A DNA stretch of 64,000 bases. Origin: a virus. Each line of letters begins with the position of its first letter. Position 1 is the stretch's first letter. The notes beneath the pieces are model-generated. The model was not told where the DNA came from. It worked only from the letters and a program-made list of their open reading frames with translations, and ran no database searches. The stretch lies in the IMG/VR virus record IMGVR_UViG_3300029858_000005, one strand, 5' to 3'. Below, piece after piece: positions 1-18,387 of the stretch. A program made the position numbers and the translations under genes.

Positions 1-2
1 TG

Positions 3-152
3 CTTGAGTCCGCAAGAGCAGTTCGGTCGGCAGTAACATATGCTTATCAGCTCGCTCAATATGAAGATTTGCCGAAGGGCGTGCTTAAATACTCAACTTC
101 GGCAGACTATAAGAACCATACGGCGATTATTACCGCTGTTCCGGTTGAGTAG
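3..152 (+). CDS. 3' end of a CDS truncated by the window edge (function unknown)
   Basis: The frame is open from the window edge to TAG at 150-152 (...HTAIITAVPVE*). It lies 21 nt upstream of the next start codon. Confidence 0.35.
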   Translation, partial: LESARAVRSAVTYAYQLAQYEDLPKGVLKYSTSADYKNHTAIITAVPVE

Positions 153-173
153 TAAACTTTAAAAGATTAAAGT

Positions 174-929
174 ATGGAGGAAATTATAAAACTCGGAAGA
201 ACCGATACAATGACATCTCTCGAAATTGCAGAGATAACCGGGAAAAAGCATGCTCATGTGATGCGTGACATTCGCTCCCTGATAGAGCAGGGAGTTAACG
301 GATCCAACTTTGGATTGGTTCGTTATAAAGATAAAAAAGGAGAGGTGAGGCCAATGTTTGAGCTAACACCAAAGGGTTGCTTGATTTTGGCGAGCGGCTA
401 TGACGCTTTGCTCCGTGAGAAAATTATAAATAAGCTTGAAGAACTTGAGAAGAAGAATCACCTGGAGCAGTATCAAGTACCTCAGTCTTTCTCCGAGGCC
501 CTTATGCTTGCAGCAAAGCAGCAGGAGAAGATAGAGCAACAACAGCTTGCTCTAGAATCGAAGAACAAAGAGATTGTACAGCTATCGGCAACAATCACCG
601 AGATGCAGCCAAAGGTTAGCTATGTTGATACAATCCTTTCGTGCAAGGAGACCGTTACGACGACACAGATTGCTCAGGACTACGGTCAATCAGCAAAAGC
701 GTTCAACATCTTGCTGAGAAACTTCGGTGTTCAGCATAAAGTTGGCGGTCAGTGGATTCTCTACGCAAAGTATCTCCCTTGTGGCTATGTCCAGTCTGAA
801 ACAGTTTCTATCACTCACCGTGATGGTAGTGTAGGTTCAGTAATGCATACAAAGTGGACTCAGAAAGGAAGATTGTTCTTGTATAATGAGTTAAAGAAAC
901 ATGAAATTCTTCCATTAATCGAAAAATAG
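174..929 (+). CDS. Rha-family phage regulatory protein / antirepressor with C-terminal KilAC (ANT-like) domain
   Basis: The N-terminus TSLEIAEITGKKHAHVMRDIRSL fits the Phage_pRha signature. The C-terminus TTTQIAQDYGQSAKAFNILLRNFGV..GGQWILYAKY..GYV fits KilA-C/ANT domains. Confidence 0.8.
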   Translation: MEEIIKLGRTDTMTSLEIAEITGKKHAHVMRDIRSLIEQGVNGSNFGLVRYKDKKGEVRPMFELTPKGCLILASGYDALLREKIINKLEELEKKNHLEQYQVPQSFSEALMLAAKQQEKIEQQQLALESKNKEIVQLSATITEMQPKVSYVDTILSCKETVTTTQIAQDYGQSAKAFNILLRNFGVQHKVGGQWILYAKYLPCGYVQSETVSITHRDGSVGSVMHTKWTQKGRLFLYNELKKHEILPLIEK

Positions 930-932
930 CCT

Positions 933-1136
933 ATGCCTCGCAAGAAAGTATCAGTAGAGCCTGTCGAAAAGATATGGCTCTCTACAAAAGAGTTCGCCAA
1001 GTATATTGGCATGAGCACTGGTTATATACACGACTTGAGAAAGAGCGGTCAGATTCATCATTATATGATAGGTAACACCGCATTCTTTAAAAAGTCTGAT
1101 ATAGATGAGCTCATTGAAGAGCATAAAGTGTGTTGA
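933..1136 (+). CDS. Small helix-turn-helix DNA-binding protein (excisionase/MerR-like HTH)
   Basis: 67 aa. WLSTKEFAKYIGMSTGYIHDLRKSGQIHHY...FFKKSDIDELI is the usual excisionase-family HTH pattern. It starts 4 nt after the previous stop. Confidence 0.65.
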   Translation: MPRKKVSVEPVEKIWLSTKEFAKYIGMSTGYIHDLRKSGQIHHYMIGNTAFFKKSDIDELIEEHKVC

Positions 1137-1235
1137 AATATTGGTATGGTTAAAGTTATAGATTTATTTCATTTGCTCGTGAGAGTATGATTGTTAGTTA
1201 TTAGTTATTTGGGTTTTATCTACAGCGGTAGATAT

Positions 1236-1276
1236 TTTGGGGCGATGTCTGTTCGTTTAGCTTCTTTCGCCCCAAA
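1236..1276 (+). promoter_or_regulatory. 10-bp hairpin immediately 5' of tRNA-Arg, loop contains TGTCTGT (tRNA-leader hairpin family)
   Basis: TTTGGGGCGA (1236-1245) pairs perfectly with TCGCCCCAAA (1267-1276) around a 21-nt loop TGTCTGTTCGTTTAGCTTCTT. It ends 3 nt before the tRNA. Confidence 0.45.
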
Positions 1277-1279
1277 TCA

Positions 1280-1354
1280 GACTGAGTAGCTCAGTTGGAT
1301 AGAGCATCGTTTTCCTAAAACGAGGGTCGATGGGTCCGAATCCCTCCTCAGTCA
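1280..1354 (+). tRNA. tRNA-Arg (anticodon CCT)
   Basis: Acceptor GACTGAG/CTCAGTC, D arm GCTC-AGTTGGATA-GAGC, anticodon stem TCGTT/AACGA and 7-nt loop TTCCTAA (U33, CCT, A37). The T arm GATGGG-TCCGAAT-CCCTC has one bulged T. Confidence 0.75.
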
Positions 1355-1865
1355 CACTCTTTTTTAGTTCCGTTTAGTAGTTGAATTCCTCTCTGACGGC
1401 GCAAAGATAAGCCCACGACCTTATAAAGTAGGTAGTTCGGGCAGCTACAATCTTGCATCGGGAGAGGTTCGGAAAGGATTGGAGAAGTAGTTCTTTGACA
1501 TATTGATGCACAGAATAGTATGCGTGGAAAATAAGTAGCCGGAGAGCATCGATGGATGCCGTGACCTGGCGAAAAGGACGCACGACATACGAAAAACTAG
1601 TCAGTAACAGATATTACATAGACTATACTGATGAACTATACTGAAACATCAGTACAAGCAAAGGGCATAATATAGGTCTGTATCGTTTACTATGTAGTAT
1701 TCTAGTCGAAGTATGTATTATTGCCATCTTACGTGTAAGATATTTATAATATGTATGGAGTGTCATACGGAACGTCAATGCTAGCTGTATCGGGAATACG
1801 GAAACGATTAATATCGTGGCATTCACAAACGACAGAAAGTTCCATGGTTTTAGATACATAAAACA

Positions 1866-1965
1866 GCAGGGTATGGTGTAAGTGGTATTCTTGCACACCT
1901 CGCACAATAGATGATACCTCTTCTTATCGTGTGAGATAGTGGCGGTTCGATTCCGCCTCCCTGCA
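1866..1965 (+). tRNA. tRNA-like gene with oversized D loop and 23-nt anticodon loop (anticodon not assignable)
   Basis: Acceptor GCAGGG(T)/(T)CCCTGC and a canonical T arm GGCGG-TTCGATT-CCGCC. The anticodon stem CGCAC/GTGTG encloses the 23-nt loop AATAGATGATACCTCTTCTTATC. Confidence 0.55.
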
Positions 1966-2118
1966 CAAATTTTCAATTATTATTATTAGATAGTACAACG
2001 TTTATTACGAATATATAAGTCTAGCTAACTCTGAACAGAGTTAAGTCAAAGAATGAGACTTTAACACTACTTTAAAGTGGAGATTACTTCTCAATACTTT
2101 AATTAAATAACAACAAAG

Positions 2119-2207
2119 AGGAGACTGGTGTAATTGGAAGCACAGCGACAACTAGATGATACCGTTCTTATCGTCGTGAGATGGGGGTTCGAGTCCTCCG
2201 TCTCCTC
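2119..2207 (+). tRNA. tRNA-like gene with 23-nt anticodon loop (contains CTA; anticodon not assignable)
   Basis: Acceptor AGGAGAC/GTCTCCT, U8, D arm GTGT-AATTGGAA-GCAC, 5-nt variable loop and T arm GGGGG-TTCGAGT-CCTCC. The anticodon stem GCGAC/GTCGT encloses the 23-nt loop AACTAGATGATACCGTTCTTATC. Confidence 0.6.
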
Positions 2208-2248
2208 CAACATATAATTCATTGTATTCTAATTTATTCAATTAAAAA

Positions 2249-2276
2249 TGCAGCTCGTCTGTGAAGATAGGCTGCA
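2249..2276 (+). promoter_or_regulatory. tRNA-leader hairpin, loop TCGTCTGTGAAGATAG
   Basis: TGCAGC (2249-2254) pairs with GCTGCA (2271-2276) around a 16-nt loop. It ends 5 nt before the tRNA at 2282. Confidence 0.45.
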
Positions 2277-2281
2277 CACAT

Positions 2282-2354
2282 CGCAGGTTGGAGCAGTTGG
2301 TAGCTCGCTAGGCTCATGACCTAGAGGTCACAGATTCGAGTTCTGTACCTGCCA
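2282..2354 (+). tRNA. tRNA with CAT anticodon (Met; Ile2 or initiator-like cannot be excluded)
   Basis: Canonical cloverleaf: D arm GAGC/GCTC, anticodon stem CTAGG/CCTAG, loop CTCATGA and T arm ACAGA-TTCGAGT-TCTGT. There is a C1xC72 mismatch at the top of the acceptor stem. Confidence 0.8.
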
Positions 2355-2408
2355 CAAATGTTTATTTTTGAAGCTCTAAATTGTTTATATGTGAAAAGAT
2401 TGTTTCTT

Positions 2409-2438
2409 GCGTATCTGGTCTGGGAAGATAGGATACGT
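2409..2438 (+). promoter_or_regulatory. tRNA-leader hairpin, loop TGGTCTGGGAAGATAG
   Basis: GCGTATC (2409-2415) pairs with GATACGT (2432-2438, one G-U). The 16-nt loop is 14/16 identical to the loop at 2255-2270, although the stems are unrelated. Confidence 0.45.
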
Positions 2439-2473
2439 CTATTTCTTTTAGAAGGAATTATTTTTTATTTCTG

Positions 2474-2550
2474 AGGAGAGTAGCTCAGTAGTAGAGCGCC
2501 AGGGGAAGGGTCCTTGGAGGTCGATGGTGCGAATCCATCCTCTCTTCCCA
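2474..2550 (+). tRNA. tRNA-like gene with 6-bp anticodon stem and loop GAAGGGT lacking U33; encoded CCA
   Basis: Acceptor AGGAGAG/CTCTCTT, D arm GCTC-AGTAGTA-GAGC, T arm GATGG-TGCGAAT-CCATC, then C-CCA. The anticodon arm CCAGGG-GAAGGGT-CCTTGG is 19 nt rather than 17. Confidence 0.55.
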
Positions 2551-2595
2551 ATTTTCTTTCGTATTTCAAGATTTTTGATTGGTTAACTTATGTGT

Positions 2596-2667
2596 CGCCC
2601 AGTAGCTTAACTGCATAGAGCCGTGGTTCTTTCCGCGAGGTTGGGAGTTGGAGTCTCCCCTGGGCTT
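2596..2667 (+). tRNA. tRNA-like gene with 6-nt anticodon loop TTCTTT (possibly Lys-CTT-derived)
   Basis: Acceptor (C)GCCCAG/CTGGGC(T), U8, D arm GCTT-AACTGCATA-GAGC and T arm GGGAG-TTGGAGT-CTCCC. The anticodon stem CGTGG/CCGCG encloses only 6 nt, and no position-26 nucleotide is left. Confidence 0.5.
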
Positions 2668-2753
2668 CCCAAGTAGGTAAATTTCTAATTTAGCTGACAG
2701 AGGTCGGCACTTTTTCTTATAAGTCATTTATATTTTAATTTGAGTATTAATAT

Positions 2754-2777
2754 CCTCTTGCTTGTGAAAGTAGGAGG
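2754..2777 (+). promoter_or_regulatory. tRNA-leader hairpin (weaker member), loop TTGCTTGTGAAAGTA
   Basis: CCTC (2754-2757) pairs with GAGG (2774-2777). The loop resembles the other two leader loops (about 11/16). It ends 5 nt before the tRNA-like gene at 2783, the same spacing as at 2276/2282. Confidence 0.3.
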
Positions 2778-2782
2778 TACAA

Positions 2783-2854
2783 GCCACATTAGCTCAGTTG
2801 GTCAGAGCAGTCCAAGATACCGACAGGCCGCAGGTTCGAGTCCTGCATGTGGCT
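2783..2854 (+). tRNA. tRNA-like gene with truncated 15-nt anticodon arm (3-bp stem GTC/GAC, loop CAAGATACC; possibly Ile-GAT-derived)
   Basis: Perfect acceptor GCCACAT/ATGTGGC, D arm GCTC-AGTTGGTCA-GAGC and T arm GCAGG-TTCGAGT-CCTGC. Only 21 nt lie between the D and T arms. Confidence 0.55.
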
Positions 2855-3023
2855 CACTTAATTGTGAGTGCCATAAATTTACAGTTTTTGATTATCTTTG
2901 GGAGTGAGGGTGTCTATTGTCCCTCCTCCCTTTAACATTGACTTCTACTCCATCTCACAATAACCACGTGCAATCACCTCTCCTGCCTTGCGTGGTTGGC
3001 TAAACGGAGAGGTTTTACTATAG

Positions 3024-3287
3024 ATGAAAGTTATAAACATAATAAGAATCAGTAAGGAAAACATTAATGCTCTTCGAAATCTGGAATGCGTTGAAAACGT
3101 AGAACAGAACGGAAAGGACATTATTGTTCGCATTAAACCGAAATATACGGATGGTAGACTTGAAGCCAGAAAGGGTGAATATATTATTCAGTGGGGTAAC
3201 AAAATGTGGCAGAGGTATGGCTCTGATGCTATCAATATGCTTTCCAAAAATCCCGGAGCGGAGGCCGGCAAGACATGGGACGCGTAG
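3024..3287 (+). CDS. hypothetical protein
   Basis: 87-aa ORF that overlaps the next same-strand gene by 13 nt. The antisense ORFs look low-complexity. Confidence 0.5.
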   Translation: MKVINIIRISKENINALRNLECVENVEQNGKDIIVRIKPKYTDGRLEARKGEYIIQWGNKMWQRYGSDAINMLSKNPGAEAGKTWDA

Positions 3288-3739
3288 GTTCAAAGAAGTA
3301 TTACGCTCCTGACGGGAACGAATACGATTCAAGAGAGGAGTATCTGTACTTGCAGACCATCCTCGATGATCCTGGTATAAGCTGCATACACAGACAGGTA
3401 ACCATCACGGCCATCAACCCGGTATGGATGCTGAAACCAAAGCAGCTTAAAACTAAGGTCAAGTATGAGAGAAGGTCACTGCTTTACGGGCATAACTATA
3501 CTGCCGACTTCGTTTACCGGGAAGGCGAGAAGATTGTGATATGTGATGTCAAGAGCCTCTATACCTCAAAGCTCAGAGAGTTCTCGATTACAACAAAGGC
3601 TGTGGTGGCAAGACTTATCGCCCACAATAGGAAACGTCATAACGGCGAGTCTGTTGTGATATTCCGTAAGGCTATCAAGATAAAGAAGAACGAGTGGAAA
3701 ATCGTTGATTATCCACCGTCCGACTGCTATATAATATAA
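3275..3739 (+). CDS. DUF1064-like protein (putative PD-(D/E)xK-type nuclease)
   Basis: KKYYAPDGNEYDSREEYLY...Q...YTADFVY..GEKIVICDVKS matches the DUF1064 pattern as I recall it. Confidence 0.55.
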   Translation: MGRVGSKKYYAPDGNEYDSREEYLYLQTILDDPGISCIHRQVTITAINPVWMLKPKQLKTKVKYERRSLLYGHNYTADFVYREGEKIVICDVKSLYTSKLREFSITTKAVVARLIAHNRKRHNGESVVIFRKAIKIKKNEWKIVDYPPSDCYII

Positions 3740-3883
3740 TAAGGTGTAAAATCTAAAAGATATGGTTATCATTTTCAATAGTCTCGTAGCCACGGTAGCT
3801 ATGTTCGCAGCATGCGCATTCGTCGTACATCTCCTTGGTTGGGATAAGGAAGACTAGTAGTTTAATTCTAAATATTTTAAATT

Positions 3884-4279
3884 ATGGACAAAGACAAAAT
3901 TATCGTCAGTGTAGTAATTGACAAGCAGGCTCTTGTTGACAGAGCATTCGACATCTCGAAGAATCCTTCTGAGTTCAATGAAATCAAGAAGGTTATCGAC
4001 GGCAAAAACCAGTTTACTCGTGATATCGACGAGATTGATGATGAAGGCAAGAAGGAGAATAATACGAACCTTTTCGCCGGCATCGCATTGGACGTCATCC
4101 TCTGTGACAACCAGGAACTGGGAATCACCAAGCGTTTAAACGCGCTTGAGGACAAGAAGAACTCTTTCCTCGCTAAGATGAAAAAGCTCGACGAACTCCA
4201 GAAAAAAGTGAAAAACGGAGAGGTGCATGGCGTTGAAGGTTTCCGTGAGTTGTTGAAAATAATGGAGGAGGACGTGTAA
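3884..4279 (+). CDS. hypothetical protein (acidic, coiled-coil C-terminus)
   Basis: 131-aa ORF whose stop overlaps the next start (ATGA-type junction). Confidence 0.6.
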   Translation: MDKDKIIVSVVIDKQALVDRAFDISKNPSEFNEIKKVIDGKNQFTRDIDEIDDEGKKENNTNLFAGIALDVILCDNQELGITKRLNALEDKKNSFLAKMKKLDELQKKVKNGEVHGVEGFRELLKIMEEDV

Positions 4280-4488
4280 TGGGTGTAGTATCAAAGTACG
4301 GAAACCTGTATGATGTAAAGAAGAACATCATCTGCCACGCTCCTGTCACTTCTTCACATTTCGAAAGTATTTTGAAGAAGGGCAATGTACTTCCAATGAT
4401 GAATGGCGTAACAACACCAGAATTGTTCGGAATTCACGCGGACAAGAAATTTAAGCGTGGACGCTGGCGCCGAGTATTAACACATTAA
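4279..4488 (+). CDS. hypothetical protein
   Basis: 69-aa ORF, translationally coupled to the upstream gene. Confidence 0.5.
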   Translation: MGVVSKYGNLYDVKKNIICHAPVTSSHFESILKKGNVLPMMNGVTTPELFGIHADKKFKRGRWRRVLTH

Positions 4489-4499
4489 TTCATATAACA

Positions 4500-4949
4500 A
4501 TGGCAAAAGAAAAAGCAAACATTTCGGCAACACTAGGTCACGAGTACGAGGACCTGGAGGAGCGTGAGGATTTCCTCGCCAACAACGCTGACTCCGTTGA
4601 GAAGATGGAGTTCATCAAGCGATTCAATTCTGATGAGCTGATGAAAAAGAAGGACCTGTTCGCCCTTCAGTCTGCACGTGCATCTGACATCGAGGAGGAA
4701 ATCAAGGATTTCCGTGAGCAGAAAAAGGCAGAGTTGAAGCCTATCAAGGAAGAGATTTCTTCTCTCCTTAAGGAAATCAAGCAGAAGGGTAGCATGGTTA
4801 ACGAGAAGGTTTACAAGTTTGTTGACCGTGAAGCAAAGATGACTGCCTTCTATGACAAGGAGGGTAATCTTGTTTCTTCCCGTCCGGCAACACGTGACGA
4901 ACTCCCTAGCAATGTATACTCAATTAACCGTGATCAGCAGGCTATGTAG
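4500..4949 (+). CDS. hypothetical acidic coiled-coil protein
   Basis: 149-aa ORF with protein-like composition and no competing ORF. Confidence 0.65.
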   Translation: MAKEKANISATLGHEYEDLEEREDFLANNADSVEKMEFIKRFNSDELMKKKDLFALQSARASDIEEEIKDFREQKKAELKPIKEEISSLLKEIKQKGSMVNEKVYKFVDREAKMTAFYDKEGNLVSSRPATRDELPSNVYSINRDQQAM

Positions 4950-4991
4950 TCTGCTTTCACATAGTTTCTAAATTCTAAAATATTTTGTAAA

Positions 4992-5738
4992 ATGAACAAT
5001 GAAAAATTGCAGATAGACCTCGCTCCTGGACAGGATCATGCGGAGATTGTTCTCCGTGAGGTAGGTAACGAGAACCCTTATAAGCTTCCTGCAAAGGAGC
5101 CTCTTAATCTTCAGGTAGACGGTGTTATTACCTGTATCTATGCCTTCCTTGAGAAGCGTTGGGGTACAGAGCAGATTGACAAAGAGCATACGCATATCCT
5201 GGTTAATCGAGAGAAGCTCGTTGTTACTCTTGTTACAAACGAGAATGATGAGCGCACTACACAGACAATCATCGGCTCTATTCAGCTGTCTCGTCAGTTT
5301 ACGGGATTCCATATCAATGACGGTCAGTTGTGGAAACCGGTACAGCTTGGTGACTTCTTCCGACTCAACCGTTCTTTCTTTGAGACGAAGGAGAAGAACA
5401 TGGAACTCGTCAATCTCCTCAAGAGCTTCTCGGCGAAGGTTCAGACAACAATCAAGAAGGAATACAGCGACAATGGTTCCGTGACTGACAACTATGAGAA
5501 GGCTGTAGACTCTAACCTTCCTCCATCGTTCACTATCAATATTCCTATTTTCAAGGGCGCAGAGCCTGAGAAGCTTTCAATCGAGACTATCGCTCACGTC
5601 GAAGGCAACATGGCATTACTGACGCTTATCTCTGCTGATGCAGAATGTATCATCGAAGAATCCCGCGACAAGATCATCAATACGGAGCTTGACAAGATTC
5701 GTAAGCTCTGTCCTGAGATTCCTATTATGGAAGTGTAA
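4992..5738 (+). CDS. hypothetical protein
   Basis: 248-aa ORF whose stop overlaps the next start. Confidence 0.7.
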   Translation: MNNEKLQIDLAPGQDHAEIVLREVGNENPYKLPAKEPLNLQVDGVITCIYAFLEKRWGTEQIDKEHTHILVNREKLVVTLVTNENDERTTQTIIGSIQLSRQFTGFHINDGQLWKPVQLGDFFRLNRSFFETKEKNMELVNLLKSFSAKVQTTIKKEYSDNGSVTDNYEKAVDSNLPPSFTINIPIFKGAEPEKLSIETIAHVEGNMALLTLISADAECIIEESRDKIINTELDKIRKLCPEIPIMEV

Positions 5739-6001
5739 TGACAGAAATAGATAACAGAATAGCAAAAATGCCCGCCAAGGTGGCCTTTGCTGTACTTGAC
5801 TTGCGTAAGGCGCATGCGTGCATCATGGAACTTCCACGAAGCAAGTCGGTACAGCTGGCCAGAAAGGCGGCATACCTCAACTACATTGAAGGTGAGGGTA
5901 GAAAACTCGGTAAGGTTCCACTTCATTATGAACGCCTTAATGAAAAGGGTGAAAGCGTGACGGTGGAAACTTACTTCAGATATTTAGATAGAGTTCATTA
6001 A
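5738..6001 (+). CDS. hypothetical protein
   Basis: 87-aa ORF, coupled to the upstream gene. Confidence 0.55.
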   Translation: MTEIDNRIAKMPAKVAFAVLDLRKAHACIMELPRSKSVQLARKAAYLNYIEGEGRKLGKVPLHYERLNEKGESVTVETYFRYLDRVH

Positions 6002-16906: not shown

Positions 16907-18148
16907 ATGGAGAAACGAATAATTTTAGACGAACAAGATATGAATGAGTTTACAAAGATTTTCGCAAAGACAATAGAAGATGAAGCTATCAAACAGATAG
17001 AAACCCTATCTAATAGCGAGGCTTACAATAGTTGTAAAATAAGAATAATGCCAGATTGCCATGCAGGTAAAGGATGCACTATTGGCACGGTAATAGAGCT
17101 TGATAACAGAGTAGTTCCTAACACTGTTGGAGTAGATATAGGCTGCGGCATGAAAGTCGTAAGACTTGGTAAAGTTGATATTGACTTGCAGAAATTTGAT
17201 GAAGCAGTCAATAAGTTGATTCCGTCTGGTTTTAATGTCAACGAGGGAGAAGTATCAGCCTACATAAACGGATTGGTTGATGGTTGTATGTTTGGCAAAT
17301 TCCGTGCTTGGGATTGTCTTGACAGCATGGAAATAGTATATCGTTCTGTTGGAAGTCTTGGCGGTGGCAATCACTTTATTGAGTTAGATGCAAATGAAGA
17401 AGGAGAGAAGTTTCTTGTGATACATACAGGAAGTAGAAACCTTGGTGTTAGGGTATGCAACTATTACCAAAAACTTGCCTACGAGTATTGTCGTAAGAAA
17501 ATAGCTGATAAGTCTGAGGTTATTGCCAAGTTGAAAAGCGAAGGAAGAGAAAAGGAAATACAGAGTGTTATCAAGTTGTTAGGTACTAGAACCATTAGCA
17601 AGGAACTTTCTTACTTGGAAGGTGATTTGCTCAATGACTACCTCAATGATATGCGCATAGTTCAAAAATATGCTGAACAAAACAGAATGATTATCGCCAA
17701 CAGACTTGTAAATGCTTTAGGTGTAGATATTGATGCTAATTCAGATAAGTATTCTTTTACAACCATTCACAACTATATAGATACAGACAAGGGTATATTG
17801 CGAAAGGGAGCTATCAGTGCAAAAAAGGATGAGGTAGTCATTATCCCAATGAATATGCGTGATGGTTCTCTTATCTGCAAGGGAAAAGGTAACAAAGATT
17901 GGCTATGCTCTGCCCCTCATGGCGCGGGTAGATTAATGTCTCGTACACAGGCAAAGAAAGAGTTATCTATGGATTTTTACAAGAATGAAATGAATGGTAT
18001 TTATTCCACATCAGTTTGTGAAGAAACCATTGATGAAGCACCTATGGCATACAAGCCAACCGAAGAGATTGTTGAGTTAATCAAACCTACGGTTGATGTC
18101 ATTGATGTCATTAAGCCAATTTACAACTTTAAAGCAAAATCATTATGA
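16907..18148 (+). CDS. rtcB: RtcB-family RNA 3'-phosphate/5'-OH ligase
   Basis: All hallmark motifs are present: MPDCHAGKGCTIGT, VGVDIGCGM, GGGNHFIE, HTGSRNLG, TIHNY and SAPHGAGR. Confidence 0.9.
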   Translation: MEKRIILDEQDMNEFTKIFAKTIEDEAIKQIETLSNSEAYNSCKIRIMPDCHAGKGCTIGTVIELDNRVVPNTVGVDIGCGMKVVRLGKVDIDLQKFDEAVNKLIPSGFNVNEGEVSAYINGLVDGCMFGKFRAWDCLDSMEIVYRSVGSLGGGNHFIELDANEEGEKFLVIHTGSRNLGVRVCNYYQKLAYEYCRKKIADKSEVIAKLKSEGREKEIQSVIKLLGTRTISKELSYLEGDLLNDYLNDMRIVQKYAEQNRMIIANRLVNALGVDIDANSDKYSFTTIHNYIDTDKGILRKGAISAKKDEVVIIPMNMRDGSLICKGKGNKDWLCSAPHGAGRLMSRTQAKKELSMDFYKNEMNGIYSTSVCEETIDEAPMAYKPTEEIVELIKPTVDVIDVIKPIYNFKAKSL

Positions 18149-18387
18149 GCAAGGAAACATTTGACTTCTCGGAGGCTCTGAGAAGAATGAAGGAAGGGAA
18201 GAAAGTGAGAAGAATCGGCTGTGGTATAGTTGACAAACTATGGATAGATAAAGATAAAAATATCAACATTTTCTATAAAGCAACAACACATTCTTCGGAA
18301 GGTTTCATTCATATTTTTCCAAGTTGTTGGAGTTATTTCACTTGCGAAGATATTCTCGCAACAGACTGGGAGGAGGTGGAAGGATGA
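18145..18387 (+). CDS. DUF2829 / Tad2-like protein (candidate anti-Thoeris signal sponge)
   Basis: 80 aa. N-terminal FDFSEALRRMKEGKKVRRIG and C-terminal EDILATDWEEV match the DUF2829 signature (F.EAL..MK.GKKV.R ... D.LA.DWE). Confidence 0.6.
   Translation: MSKETFDFSEALRRMKEGKKVRRIGCGIVDKLWIDKDKNINIFYKATTHSSEGFIHIFPSCWSYFTCEDILATDWEEVEG

Follow-up and report, generated by a model that had tools for sequence, protein, structure and literature searches.

Not every RNA with the shape of a transfer RNA (tRNA) takes part in decoding: the vtRNAs of the herpesvirus MHV68 and the 'species 1' and 'species 2' RNAs of phage T4, which lie in the T4 tRNA cluster, are tRNA-like noncoding RNAs. The Y RNAs of the bacterial YrlA type have a tRNA-like domain and are encoded beside rtcB (PMC4201824), and irregular tRNA polycistrons of soil bacteria, some with G-1 and acceptor stems of 8 base pairs (bp), specify tRNAs that are not aminoacylated or usable in Escherichia coli (Mukai 2017, reviewed in PMC7609411). 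Phage tRNA genes are now explained by codon supply or by the replacement of tRNAs cut by host defences. Phage tRNAs counter tRNA-cleaving defences in several systems, including anticodon-loop variants in mycobacteriophages (PMC10264068), the tRNA-Lys of T5 against PARIS (PMC11464382) and phage tRNAs against retron effectors (PMC11555353). Here, we describe an array of seven tRNA-shaped genes at positions 1280–2854 of the viral record IMGVR_UViG_3300029858_000005, a stretch of 64,000 nucleotides (nt) referred to below as the window. Five of the seven genes are very probably non-decoding tRNA mimics under selection, and the best reading of the comparative evidence is that what they are retained for is the L-shape of a tRNA, with its acceptor end, rather than codon reading.

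Organization of the array

All seven genes lie on the + strand, at the coordinates and with the anticodon-arm geometries given in a preliminary description of this DNA. ARAGORN and the Rfam model RF00005 both find an ordinary anticodon arm, with a 5-bp stem and 7-nt loop, only in 1280–1354 (t1) and 2282–2354 (t4); the remaining five genes were missed, forced, or matched only with the anticodon loop skipped. The preliminary division into two canonical and five aberrant genes is thereby upheld, and because the covariance model does not fold the five loci with ordinary 5-bp/7-nt arms, it cannot be put down to faulty hand alignment. A 5-bp stem and a 7-nt loop with U33 and purine 37 is lacking in the genes that begin at 1866 (t2), 2118 (t3), 2474 (t5), 2596 (t6) and 2783 (t7), the aberrant loops measuring 3–9 or 23–25 nt across relatives. 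The L-shape formed by the acceptor, D and T arms of RF00005 is retained, as seen from covariation in the acceptor, D and T stems and at the 19:56 pair. Its deviations are G55 together with the D loop AGTAGTA in t5, G56 with C19 (a swapped 19:56 pair) in t6 and a long D stem in t2, and the elbow is also odd in t1, which has C55. The arms had been described as of GCTC/GAGC type (D) and GGTTCGA type (T); the first does not hold for 1866 and 2118, which are both GTGT/GCAC, nor the second for the T loops of 2474 (TGCGAAT) and 2596 (TTGGAGT).

The comparative set comprised more than 150 related IMG/VR and metagenome contigs of approximately 85–90 kb, nearly all from the human gut. The features of the array recur in more than 150 independent assemblies, which places the pattern far beyond chance. 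The five genes had been taken as one group, and aberrant arms are indeed common to all of them; they are not a single phenomenon, since three have unconstrained loops and two carry conserved 23-nt modules. Class 1 consists of t5, t6 and t7, and class 2 of t2, t3 and the paralogues t3′ and t3″.

Class 1 genes: t5, t6 and t7

ARAGORN calls t5 (2474–2550) 'Pro(agg)', and RF00005 brings it up to threshold (47.8 bits) only by skipping locally across the loop (9 nt against 7 in the model). The arm at 2499–2517 has a 6-bp stem, CCAGGG/CCTTGG (2499–2504/2512–2517), around the loop GAAGGGT (2505–2511), and CCA is encoded at the 3′ end. Among the 36 distinct variants of the t5 family, 96.5% of cells are paired and changes on both sides occur in 8 of 22 pairs, the acceptor stem, for example, existing as AGGAGAG/CTCTCTT, GGTGGCG/CGCCACT and AGTGGAG/CTCCACC; the covariation score was reached by none of 500 shuffles. 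The anticodon hairpin of the family exists in at least 12 versions, with 6–7 bp and loops of 4–7 nt, and some of these combine 7-bp stems with 4-nt loops.

The t6 gene (2596–2667) is reported by ARAGORN as 'tRNA-???' with a 2-nt anticodon and is without an RF00005 match at E ≤ 1. Its arm (2622–2637) pairs CGTGG with CCGCG (2622–2626/2633–2637) around the 6-nt loop TTCTTT (2627–2632), and the loops of its relatives are 3, 5, 6 or 8 nt long. The 19:56 pair is C:G in 17 variants, A:U in four and G:C in three, and is thus paired throughout, direct evidence that it is the L-shaped fold that is preserved.

For t7 (2783–2854), ARAGORN gives 'Ile(gat)' with three of five stem pairs, and RF00005 again reaches threshold, at 52.5 bits, only by a local loop jump (9 nt against 11 in the model). 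The arm is only 15 nt long (2810–2824; GTC C AAGATAC C GAC), with three pairs, a C.C mismatch and a 7-nt loop with A33. In relatives, the same slot is occupied either by a canonical arm, Asn(GTT) or Thr(TGT), or by one of several other 15-nt arms. The 9-mer AAGATACCG is found both in the t7 arm and in the insert of t3′.

Nucleotide diversity, computed over 29 distinct full arrays, is 0.238, 0.219 and 0.337 in the loop or arm of t5, t6 and t7, respectively, while the stems stay paired. Set against spacer windows of equal length, these tips fall in the upper 18%, 20% and 4.5%. The tips of the three anticodon hairpins are free to change in sequence and in length; this diversity is an absence of constraint and does not by itself prove diversifying selection or an arms race. 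The loops of 3–6 nt and the closed 7-bp hairpins found among relatives rule out normal decoding for t5 and t6, and the view of the five genes as simply more extreme forms of nuclease-escaping decoders is not supported. The t5 and t6 loops vary independently across arrays, which rules out a kissing interaction by complementarity between them.

In ARAGORN registration, the aberrant loop types are aagatac, aaggtac, aacatgg, gacatca, gaagNNt, tataaat, aactNga, aatcag and aacgaa, and most of them, in several gene families, have A and not U at loop position 2 (tRNA position 33). This pattern is a lead only, because the loop registration by ARAGORN is uncertain.

Class 2 genes: t2, t3 and the 23-nucleotide insert

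The two class 2 genes carry an insert of 23 nt in place of the anticodon loop. The first, t2 (1866–1965), was missed by ARAGORN and has no RF00005 match at E ≤ 1. It has six acceptor pairs and an unusually long D stem, does not have G-1:C73, and folds with a minimum free energy of −40.3 kcal/mol (z = −4.78); a 6-bp stem (1900–1905/1929–1934) encloses its insert, AATAGATGATACCTCTTCTTATC (1906–1928). It is found in approximately 20 relatives, among which the acceptor stem changes in a compensatory manner from GCAGGG/CCCTGC to GCATGG/CCATGC. The stretch of approximately 500 nt that contains t2 (1600–2100) is an accessory cassette, present in only about 20 related loci that are 97–100% identical there.

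ARAGORN forced the second gene, t3, to 'Ser(act)' at 2119–2208 with three of five stem pairs, and in Rfam it meets only a sub-threshold tRNA-Sec match. Its 3′ end at 2207 had been placed correctly in the preliminary description, but its start had not: the gene begins at G2118, which as G-1 pairs with C73 (C2207) for a total of eight acceptor pairs. An extra G-1:C73 pair is the hallmark of tRNA-His. Outside the insert, t3 (2118–2207) is a textbook cloverleaf, with U8, the D arm GTGT/GCAC with the loop AATTGGAA, a variable loop of 4–5 nt and the T loop TTCGAGT, and its anticodon arm has a 5-bp stem (2145–2149/2173–2177). The t3 families comprise 34 distinct variants among 127 copies, with covariation in the acceptor stem, the arm stem and the T stem; all 34 distinct t3 and t3′ variants have G-1:C73, as does t3″.

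The insert of t3, AACTAGATGATACCGTTCTTATC (2150–2172), is laid out as a 5′ unpaired AAC-NNN-A-W and an inner GATA/TATC helix capped by an apical loop of 7–9 nt (CC..TCT), and its consensus over 23–25 nt is AAC-NNN-A-W-GATACC-(G/TC/GT/GAT)-(T/A)TCTTATC. With a diversity of 0.039, against 0.165 in the rest of the gene and 0.135 in the spacers, it is the most conserved part of the gene. The module is common to four paralogue families whose closing stems differ, with compensatory changes between families (GCGAC/GTCGT, GCGGC/GCCGT, CATAC/GTATG, GCGAT/ATCGC and TCGCAC/GTGTGA), while the inner GATA/TATC helix is retained, now and then with a G.U pair. Not one of approximately 125 copies is free of the insert, and a search for insert-free homologues based on the D arm returned unrelated tRNAs and coding sequence. 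Within the window, an antisense target of the insert was limited to one site with three mismatches, the level expected by chance.

Several other interpretations of these genes were tried and rejected. Refolding t3 as a class-II or tRNA-Sec-like tRNA was ruled out, the alternative pairing being without support while the stem that closes the insert covaries. A tmRNA-like mini-open reading frame of seven codons (ATG...TGA) in t2 and t3 loses its ATG in t3′ and t3″ and its stop codon in GTCGCAAAT variants. The triplet CTA of the insert cannot be read as an amber suppressor, given that it varies (CTA, CTT, CTG, CAA) and that the window has long open reading frames (ORFs) in the standard code. On inspection, kink-turn, C/D box and tetraloop-receptor motifs do not fit the insert, and a second inner helix (positions 5–8 with 16–19) would cross the GATA/TATC helix and is broken in t3″. 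A group I intron is likewise not found: the insert has just 23–25 nt and no Rfam intron match, where the self-splicing type needs approximately 200 nt or more and a P1–P9 core.

Another arrangement occurs at the t3 locus of one relative (IMGVR_UViG_3300045988_086047), where the 5′ two-thirds of t3, including the insert, are joined to T-arm and 3′-terminal sequence of t5; such a chimera indicates deletion by recombination between tRNA-like genes.

Selection on the tRNA bodies

The preliminary description had proposed that the tRNA bodies are selected and that the abnormality is confined to the anticodon arm, and comparison with relatives bears this out. Compensatory changes are seen in three stems (acceptor, T and anticodon) and at the 19:56 pair, and the bodies of t4–t7 have diversities of 0.008–0.046 (0.008 in t6) against 0.135 for the spacers, being 3–17 times less diverse than the spacers adjacent to them; for class 1, conservation of the body is put at 5–25 times that of the spacers. 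Both t5 and t6 are kept in all 44 arrays for which both flanks are available, and a t3-type gene is kept in essentially all. Damage outside the anticodon arm was never seen. The covariation, the low body diversity and the retention of t5, t6 and t3-type genes together exclude random decay, and the relatives do not show decay spread over the whole molecule. G.U pairs are used on the + strand, so the constraint acts on + strand RNA, and the tRNA-like bodies are, on this comparative evidence, under purifying selection at the RNA level.

The reading of the five genes as decaying ex-tRNA genes is scarcely credible and appears largely refuted already by these comparisons: close kinship of the phages might account for apparent conservation, since the relatives belong to one species-complex with a flanking gene 90–100% identical in nucleotide sequence, and the arms are flagged as defective by the tools, but kinship does not explain bodies so much less variable than the neighbouring spacers, stems and 19:56 pairs preserved by compensatory change, or the constant presence of t5 and t6 with damage that never extends beyond the anticodon arm.

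Comparison with known tRNA-like systems

The published phage tRNAs that escape anticodon nucleases resemble this locus in belonging to a phage array, in having their differences concentrated in the anticodon arm and in sharing a genome with an RNA repair ligase. They keep the 5-bp stem, the 7-nt loop and the anticodon, and they act through decoding, whereas here all five genes depart from that geometry, with loops of 3–9 or 23 nt whose sequence is unconstrained in class 1 and gives way to a module in class 2. Loop length also varies among relatives, and for these reasons the five are not nuclease-escaping decoding tRNAs.

The RNAs of MHV68, T4 and YrlA are likewise tRNA-shaped non-decoders, which use the enzymes of tRNA processing or recognition, YrlA being in addition linked to RtcB. 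YrlA differs in having a closed acceptor end and a Ro-binding helix, and the MHV68 RNAs belong to a eukaryotic Pol III system. A Y RNA-like Rfam family has no match at E ≤ 1 in positions 1–6000 of the window, and a TROVE/Ro domain was not found in the ORFs scanned.

The irregular arrays recall the polycistrons that encode allo-tRNA-like molecules, and the D arm of t3, GTGTAAnnGGAAGCAC, occurs in class-II UAU tRNAs of unrelated viral contigs. Allo-tRNAs have acceptor/T arrangements of 8/4 or 9/3, a long variable arm and a 7-nt loop, whereas t3 is 8/5 (with −1:73) and has a variable loop of 4–5 nt and the 23-nt insert. The unrelated contigs (L073, L081, L092, L094, L102, L104 and others) are mostly environmental; their class-II tRNAs with the t3 D arm, AGTGTAAnTGGAAGCAC, combine an 8-bp acceptor stem with a long variable arm, have the loop CTTATAA (anticodon UAU), encode CCA and resemble the soil-bacterial allo-tRNA(UAU).

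The G-1:C73 pair of all t3, t3′ and t3″ variants is a likeness to tRNA-His, from which t3 differs in having neither a 7-nt loop nor a conserved GTG at the anticodon position. With tRNA-Sec (RF01852), t3 shares only the 8+5 acceptor/T length, and its score of 23.8 bits falls below the gathering score of 47; in tRNA-Sec the D stem has 6 bp and its loop 4 nt, the variable arm is long and the anticodon is UCA, whereas t3 has a 4-bp D stem with an 8-nt loop, a variable loop of 4–5 nt and no UCA.

Archaeal and eukaryotic pre-tRNA introns are marked by a bulge-helix-bulge and the exons are joined by RtcB (PMC4090602). Class 2 genes are like such precursors in having extra anticodon-loop nucleotides within a normal cloverleaf in a genome that encodes RtcB; they differ in their bacterial/phage setting, in lacking a bulge-helix-bulge, in that an endonuclease gene was not found among the ORFs scanned and in that no 16-nt excision leaves a canonical loop.

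None of the five genes is a tRNA-Sec, an allo-tRNA, a YrlA RNA or a tmRNA, the defining features of which are absent, and the absence of a bulge-helix-bulge makes intron-containing pre-tRNAs very unlikely. By analogy, their closest functional counterparts may be the viral and bacterial tRNA-like noncoding RNAs together with the irregular soil polycistrons (PMC7609411).

Possible functions and alternative explanations

If the five genes are tRNA mimics, a sequence of events can be outlined for their action. The tRNA-like RNAs would be transcribed early, with the two normal tRNAs, and excised by RNase P and RNase Z. They would then act on proteins that recognize tRNA by its shape, most likely as uncleavable competitors or baits for host nucleases that target tRNA in defence; the class 2 module would serve as a specific protein-binding site, or as a site of cleavage and ligation, and the phage RtcB would reseal whatever tRNA is cut. 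Such a counter-defence role is favoured by the accessory and mosaic nature of the array, its location in the early region, the pairing of RtcB with a Tad2-like gene (described below) and the published examples of counter-defence by phage tRNAs (PMC10264068, PMC11464382, PMC11555353), and we consider a decoy or counter-defence mechanism possible, though tentative. A fuller version is speculative and on balance unlikely: the array could form an RNA-based anti-defence island, in which class 1 RNAs are uncleavable competitors and class 2 RNAs present the 23-nt module on a tRNA-His-like scaffold, either binding and blocking a host tRNA-targeting effector or being cut and religated by RtcB instead.

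Several points weigh against the view of the array as selected mimics with a decoy function. All relatives belong to one species-complex, so that the covariation rests on few independent events. The loop diversity of t5 and t6 lies only in the upper 20% or so of spacer windows and would follow from a lack of constraint no less than from an arms race. An arbitrary loop sequence would not serve as bait for nucleases that recognize the anticodon loop, and a stoichiometric decoy has to compete with the entire cellular tRNA pool. Finally, RtcB lies 14 kb from the array and the link between them is circumstantial.

An alternative to which we give a low but appreciable probability is that the tRNA-shaped elements punctuate an early polycistronic transcript, as RNase P and RNase Z cleavage signals and as stabilizers of 3′ and 5′ ends. 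The valued products would then be the two real tRNAs, an RNA of approximately 250 nt (1356–1606) and GNRA hairpins, and as the acceptor, T arm and elbow suffice for processing, the anticodon tip would drift. Mitochondrial transcripts are punctuated by tRNAs in this manner, and the small RNAs linked to tRNAs in MHV68 follow the same principle. The loops do evolve like spacer while the body, including the elbow contacted by RNase P and RNase Z, is conserved; t1 and t3 lie on either side of a conserved noncoding block, and covarying GNRA hairpins end 5–6 nt upstream of t4 and t7. Punctuation nevertheless leaves the conserved 23-nt module and the invariant G-1:C73 of the t3 family unexplained, t5, t6 and t7 adjoin nothing but short spacers, whose conservation is below that of the tRNA-like genes, and the full D arms and anticodon stems exceed what a minimal RNase P or RNase Z substrate needs.

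It is quite unlikely that some of the odd genes, chiefly t7-like genes with 7-nt loops, decode after all, with A33 and a shortened stem making them less efficient but resistant to anticodon nucleases. Several versions of the t7 slot keep the triplet and purine 37 (AAGATAC, AAGGTAC, AACATGG), beside canonical Asn and Thr alleles, and the A at loop position 2 of most listed aberrant loop types would suit such hardening; against this, U33 is close to universal in decoding tRNAs. Loop-substituted phage tRNAs are able to escape nucleases (PMC10264068), and anticodon stems of other than 5 bp can function (PMC13092985). The 4-bp stems in the latter case, however, reflect an unpaired terminal pair in a 17-nt arm, which the 15-nt arm of t7, two nucleotides short, does not match. 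Elsewhere, the loops of 3–8 nt in t6 relatives and the 7-bp stems with loops of 4–5 nt in t5 relatives cannot present an anticodon, and the loop diversity bears no sign of constraint.

We regard as very unlikely the proposal that t2 and t3 are pre-tRNAs with a new type of short (approximately 16 nt), protein-spliced intron, in which a sequence-specific endonuclease would cleave the module and RtcB, the ligase of protein-catalysed tRNA splicing, would join the halves. The insert sits exactly at the anticodon-loop position of an otherwise normal cloverleaf, and its sequence is conserved across paralogues with different bodies, as expected of a recognition site. A bulge-helix-bulge, with two 3-nt bulges and a 4-bp helix, is nevertheless absent, and no bulge separates the 3′ TATC of the insert from the stem; excision of 16 nt never yields a U33 loop in any prefix/suffix combination worked through by hand, and the candidate 'anticodon' triplet varies, as it does for the suppressor reading. 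The lack of an insert-free allele is also unfavourable, no splicing endonuclease domain was found in approximately 50 scanned ORFs, many of them unannotated, and no precedent was found in the literature.

Should the tRNA mimics act as decoys or inhibitors, tRNA mimicry would itself be a counter-defence strategy and the 23-nt module a handle for its protein partner; an anti-defence island of the kind outlined would constitute a new class of counter-defence in phages, with RNA in the place of protein. Should they be processing signals, the array would be a bacterial-virus counterpart of tRNA punctuation. In either case, annotation pipelines mislabel such genes as Ser, Pro, Ile or 'undetermined' tRNAs and distort analyses of codon usage in gut phages, and an abundant human-gut lineage gives most of a conserved early-region array to tRNA-shaped RNAs without an anticodon.

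RtcB, the phage and its relatives

An RtcB RNA ligase (3′-phosphate/5′-OH) had been noted at 16907–18148, and both Pfam (PF01139, 6.9e-64) and PHROG (1075, 'tRNA splicing ligase', 1.6e-131) identify it on the + strand. Its stop codon is overlapped by the ORF of an 80-amino-acid protein with a Tad2-like (Thoeris anti-defence 2) domain (18145–18387, + strand; PF11195, 6e-07, 30.3 bits against a cut-off of 25), so the ligase adjoins a known type of anti-defence gene. RtcB is a possible partner of the array.

Domain and PHROG scans place a terminase, portal, major head protein, primase, helicase, RecT-like protein and NinB among the products of the window, which also encodes very large tail-fibre-like proteins and has ORFs of 2625 and 2069 amino acids open in the standard code. 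A Rha/KilAC antirepressor gene lies immediately upstream of the array, in what is an early/regulatory region. The DUF1064 protein beside the array is 95–100% identical among relatives, which makes them one species-complex. The array is mosaic by comparison: among the loci compared, some arrays are only approximately 70% identical over t5–t7 while the DUF1064 gene is 90–100% identical in nucleotide sequence. Coverage of the lineage, read off contig names, is in the thousands in some assemblies. A relative of the array was not found among GenBank phages, which gave generic tRNA similarity only, nor was a description of this type of array found in the literature.

A search of cellular genomes with the insert gave two contigs from metagenome-assembled genomes (MAGs), both resembling binned phage DNA: CAKRIN010000043.1, binned in a MAG labelled Lachnospira sp., and JAJXAL010000049.1, in one labelled Segatella copri. 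Both are contigs of the same phage, and at least one of the two assignments is probably a binning artefact. A Segatella/Prevotella host is likely, as judged from the S. copri label and the 87% identity of the CAU tRNA (t4) to a tRNA in Prevotella Lak megaphages; the G+C content of the window, 41–47%, agrees with that label, as does the similarity to the Lak-phage tRNA.

Canonical genes, leader hairpins and the noncoding block

The two canonical genes of the array are t1, a tRNA-Arg(CCU) (1280–1354; ARAGORN Arg(cct), RF00005 52.3 bits with the full anticodon arm) with the loop TTCCTAA in its 5-bp/7-nt arm, and t4, a tRNA(CAU) (2282–2354; ARAGORN Met(cat), RF00005 59.1 bits, also with the full arm). 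Arg(cct) was called 124 times in related loci. The T loop of t1 is TCCGAAT, with C at position 55, and reads TCCGA or TTCGA among relatives; U or pseudouridine is nearly universal at this position in tRNAs. The t4 gene is partly initiator-like, with a C1.C72 mismatch that is C1.A72 in relatives, as in initiator tRNA; its anticodon stem has just two G-C pairs at the bottom, and position 37 is G (or A).

Three hairpins on the + strand precede genes of the array and share a common plan of outer stem, 2×2 internal loop, inner stem of 3–4 bp and GNRA tetraloop (GTGA, GGGA and GTGA). The first (2250–2275; GCAGC TC GTCT GTGA AGAT AG GCTGC) ends 6 nt upstream of t4; it is 100% identical even in distant relatives, and its outer and inner stems covary in relatives. 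The second (2409–2438; GCGTATC TG GTCT GGGA AGAT AG GATACGT) lies upstream of t5 and was recognized as repeat family D7 and by covariation, and the third (2754–2777; CCTCT TG CTT GTGA AAG TA GGAGG), read from the sequence, ends 5 nt upstream of t7. Covariants in relatives include GCCC GTGA GGGT, GTAC GTGA GTAT and GTCC GCGA GGAT. The motif is found nowhere else in the window, and could represent a boxB/nut-like protein-binding site or a processing signal.

Between t1 and t2/t3 lies a noncoding block of approximately 250 nt (1356–1606), which is 82–88% identical in about 50 relatives and has conserved ends and a variable centre. Its predicted helices covary in just 2 of 56 pairs, and it has no Rfam match and no + strand ORF of at least 80 amino acids. 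The block may correspond to a new small RNA freed by the flanking tRNA genes.

An intrinsic-terminator-like hairpin at 2693–2708, GCTGACAGAGGTCGGC followed by ACTTTTTCTT, is placed between t6 and t7, and the array may for this reason be transcribed as two or more units. The 3′ half of the hairpin before t5 (2421–2434) is complementary at 13 of 14 positions to 2537–2550, which covers the 3′ strands of the t5 T stem and acceptor stem and the CCA, and relatives with a different t5 acceptor also differ in this hairpin.

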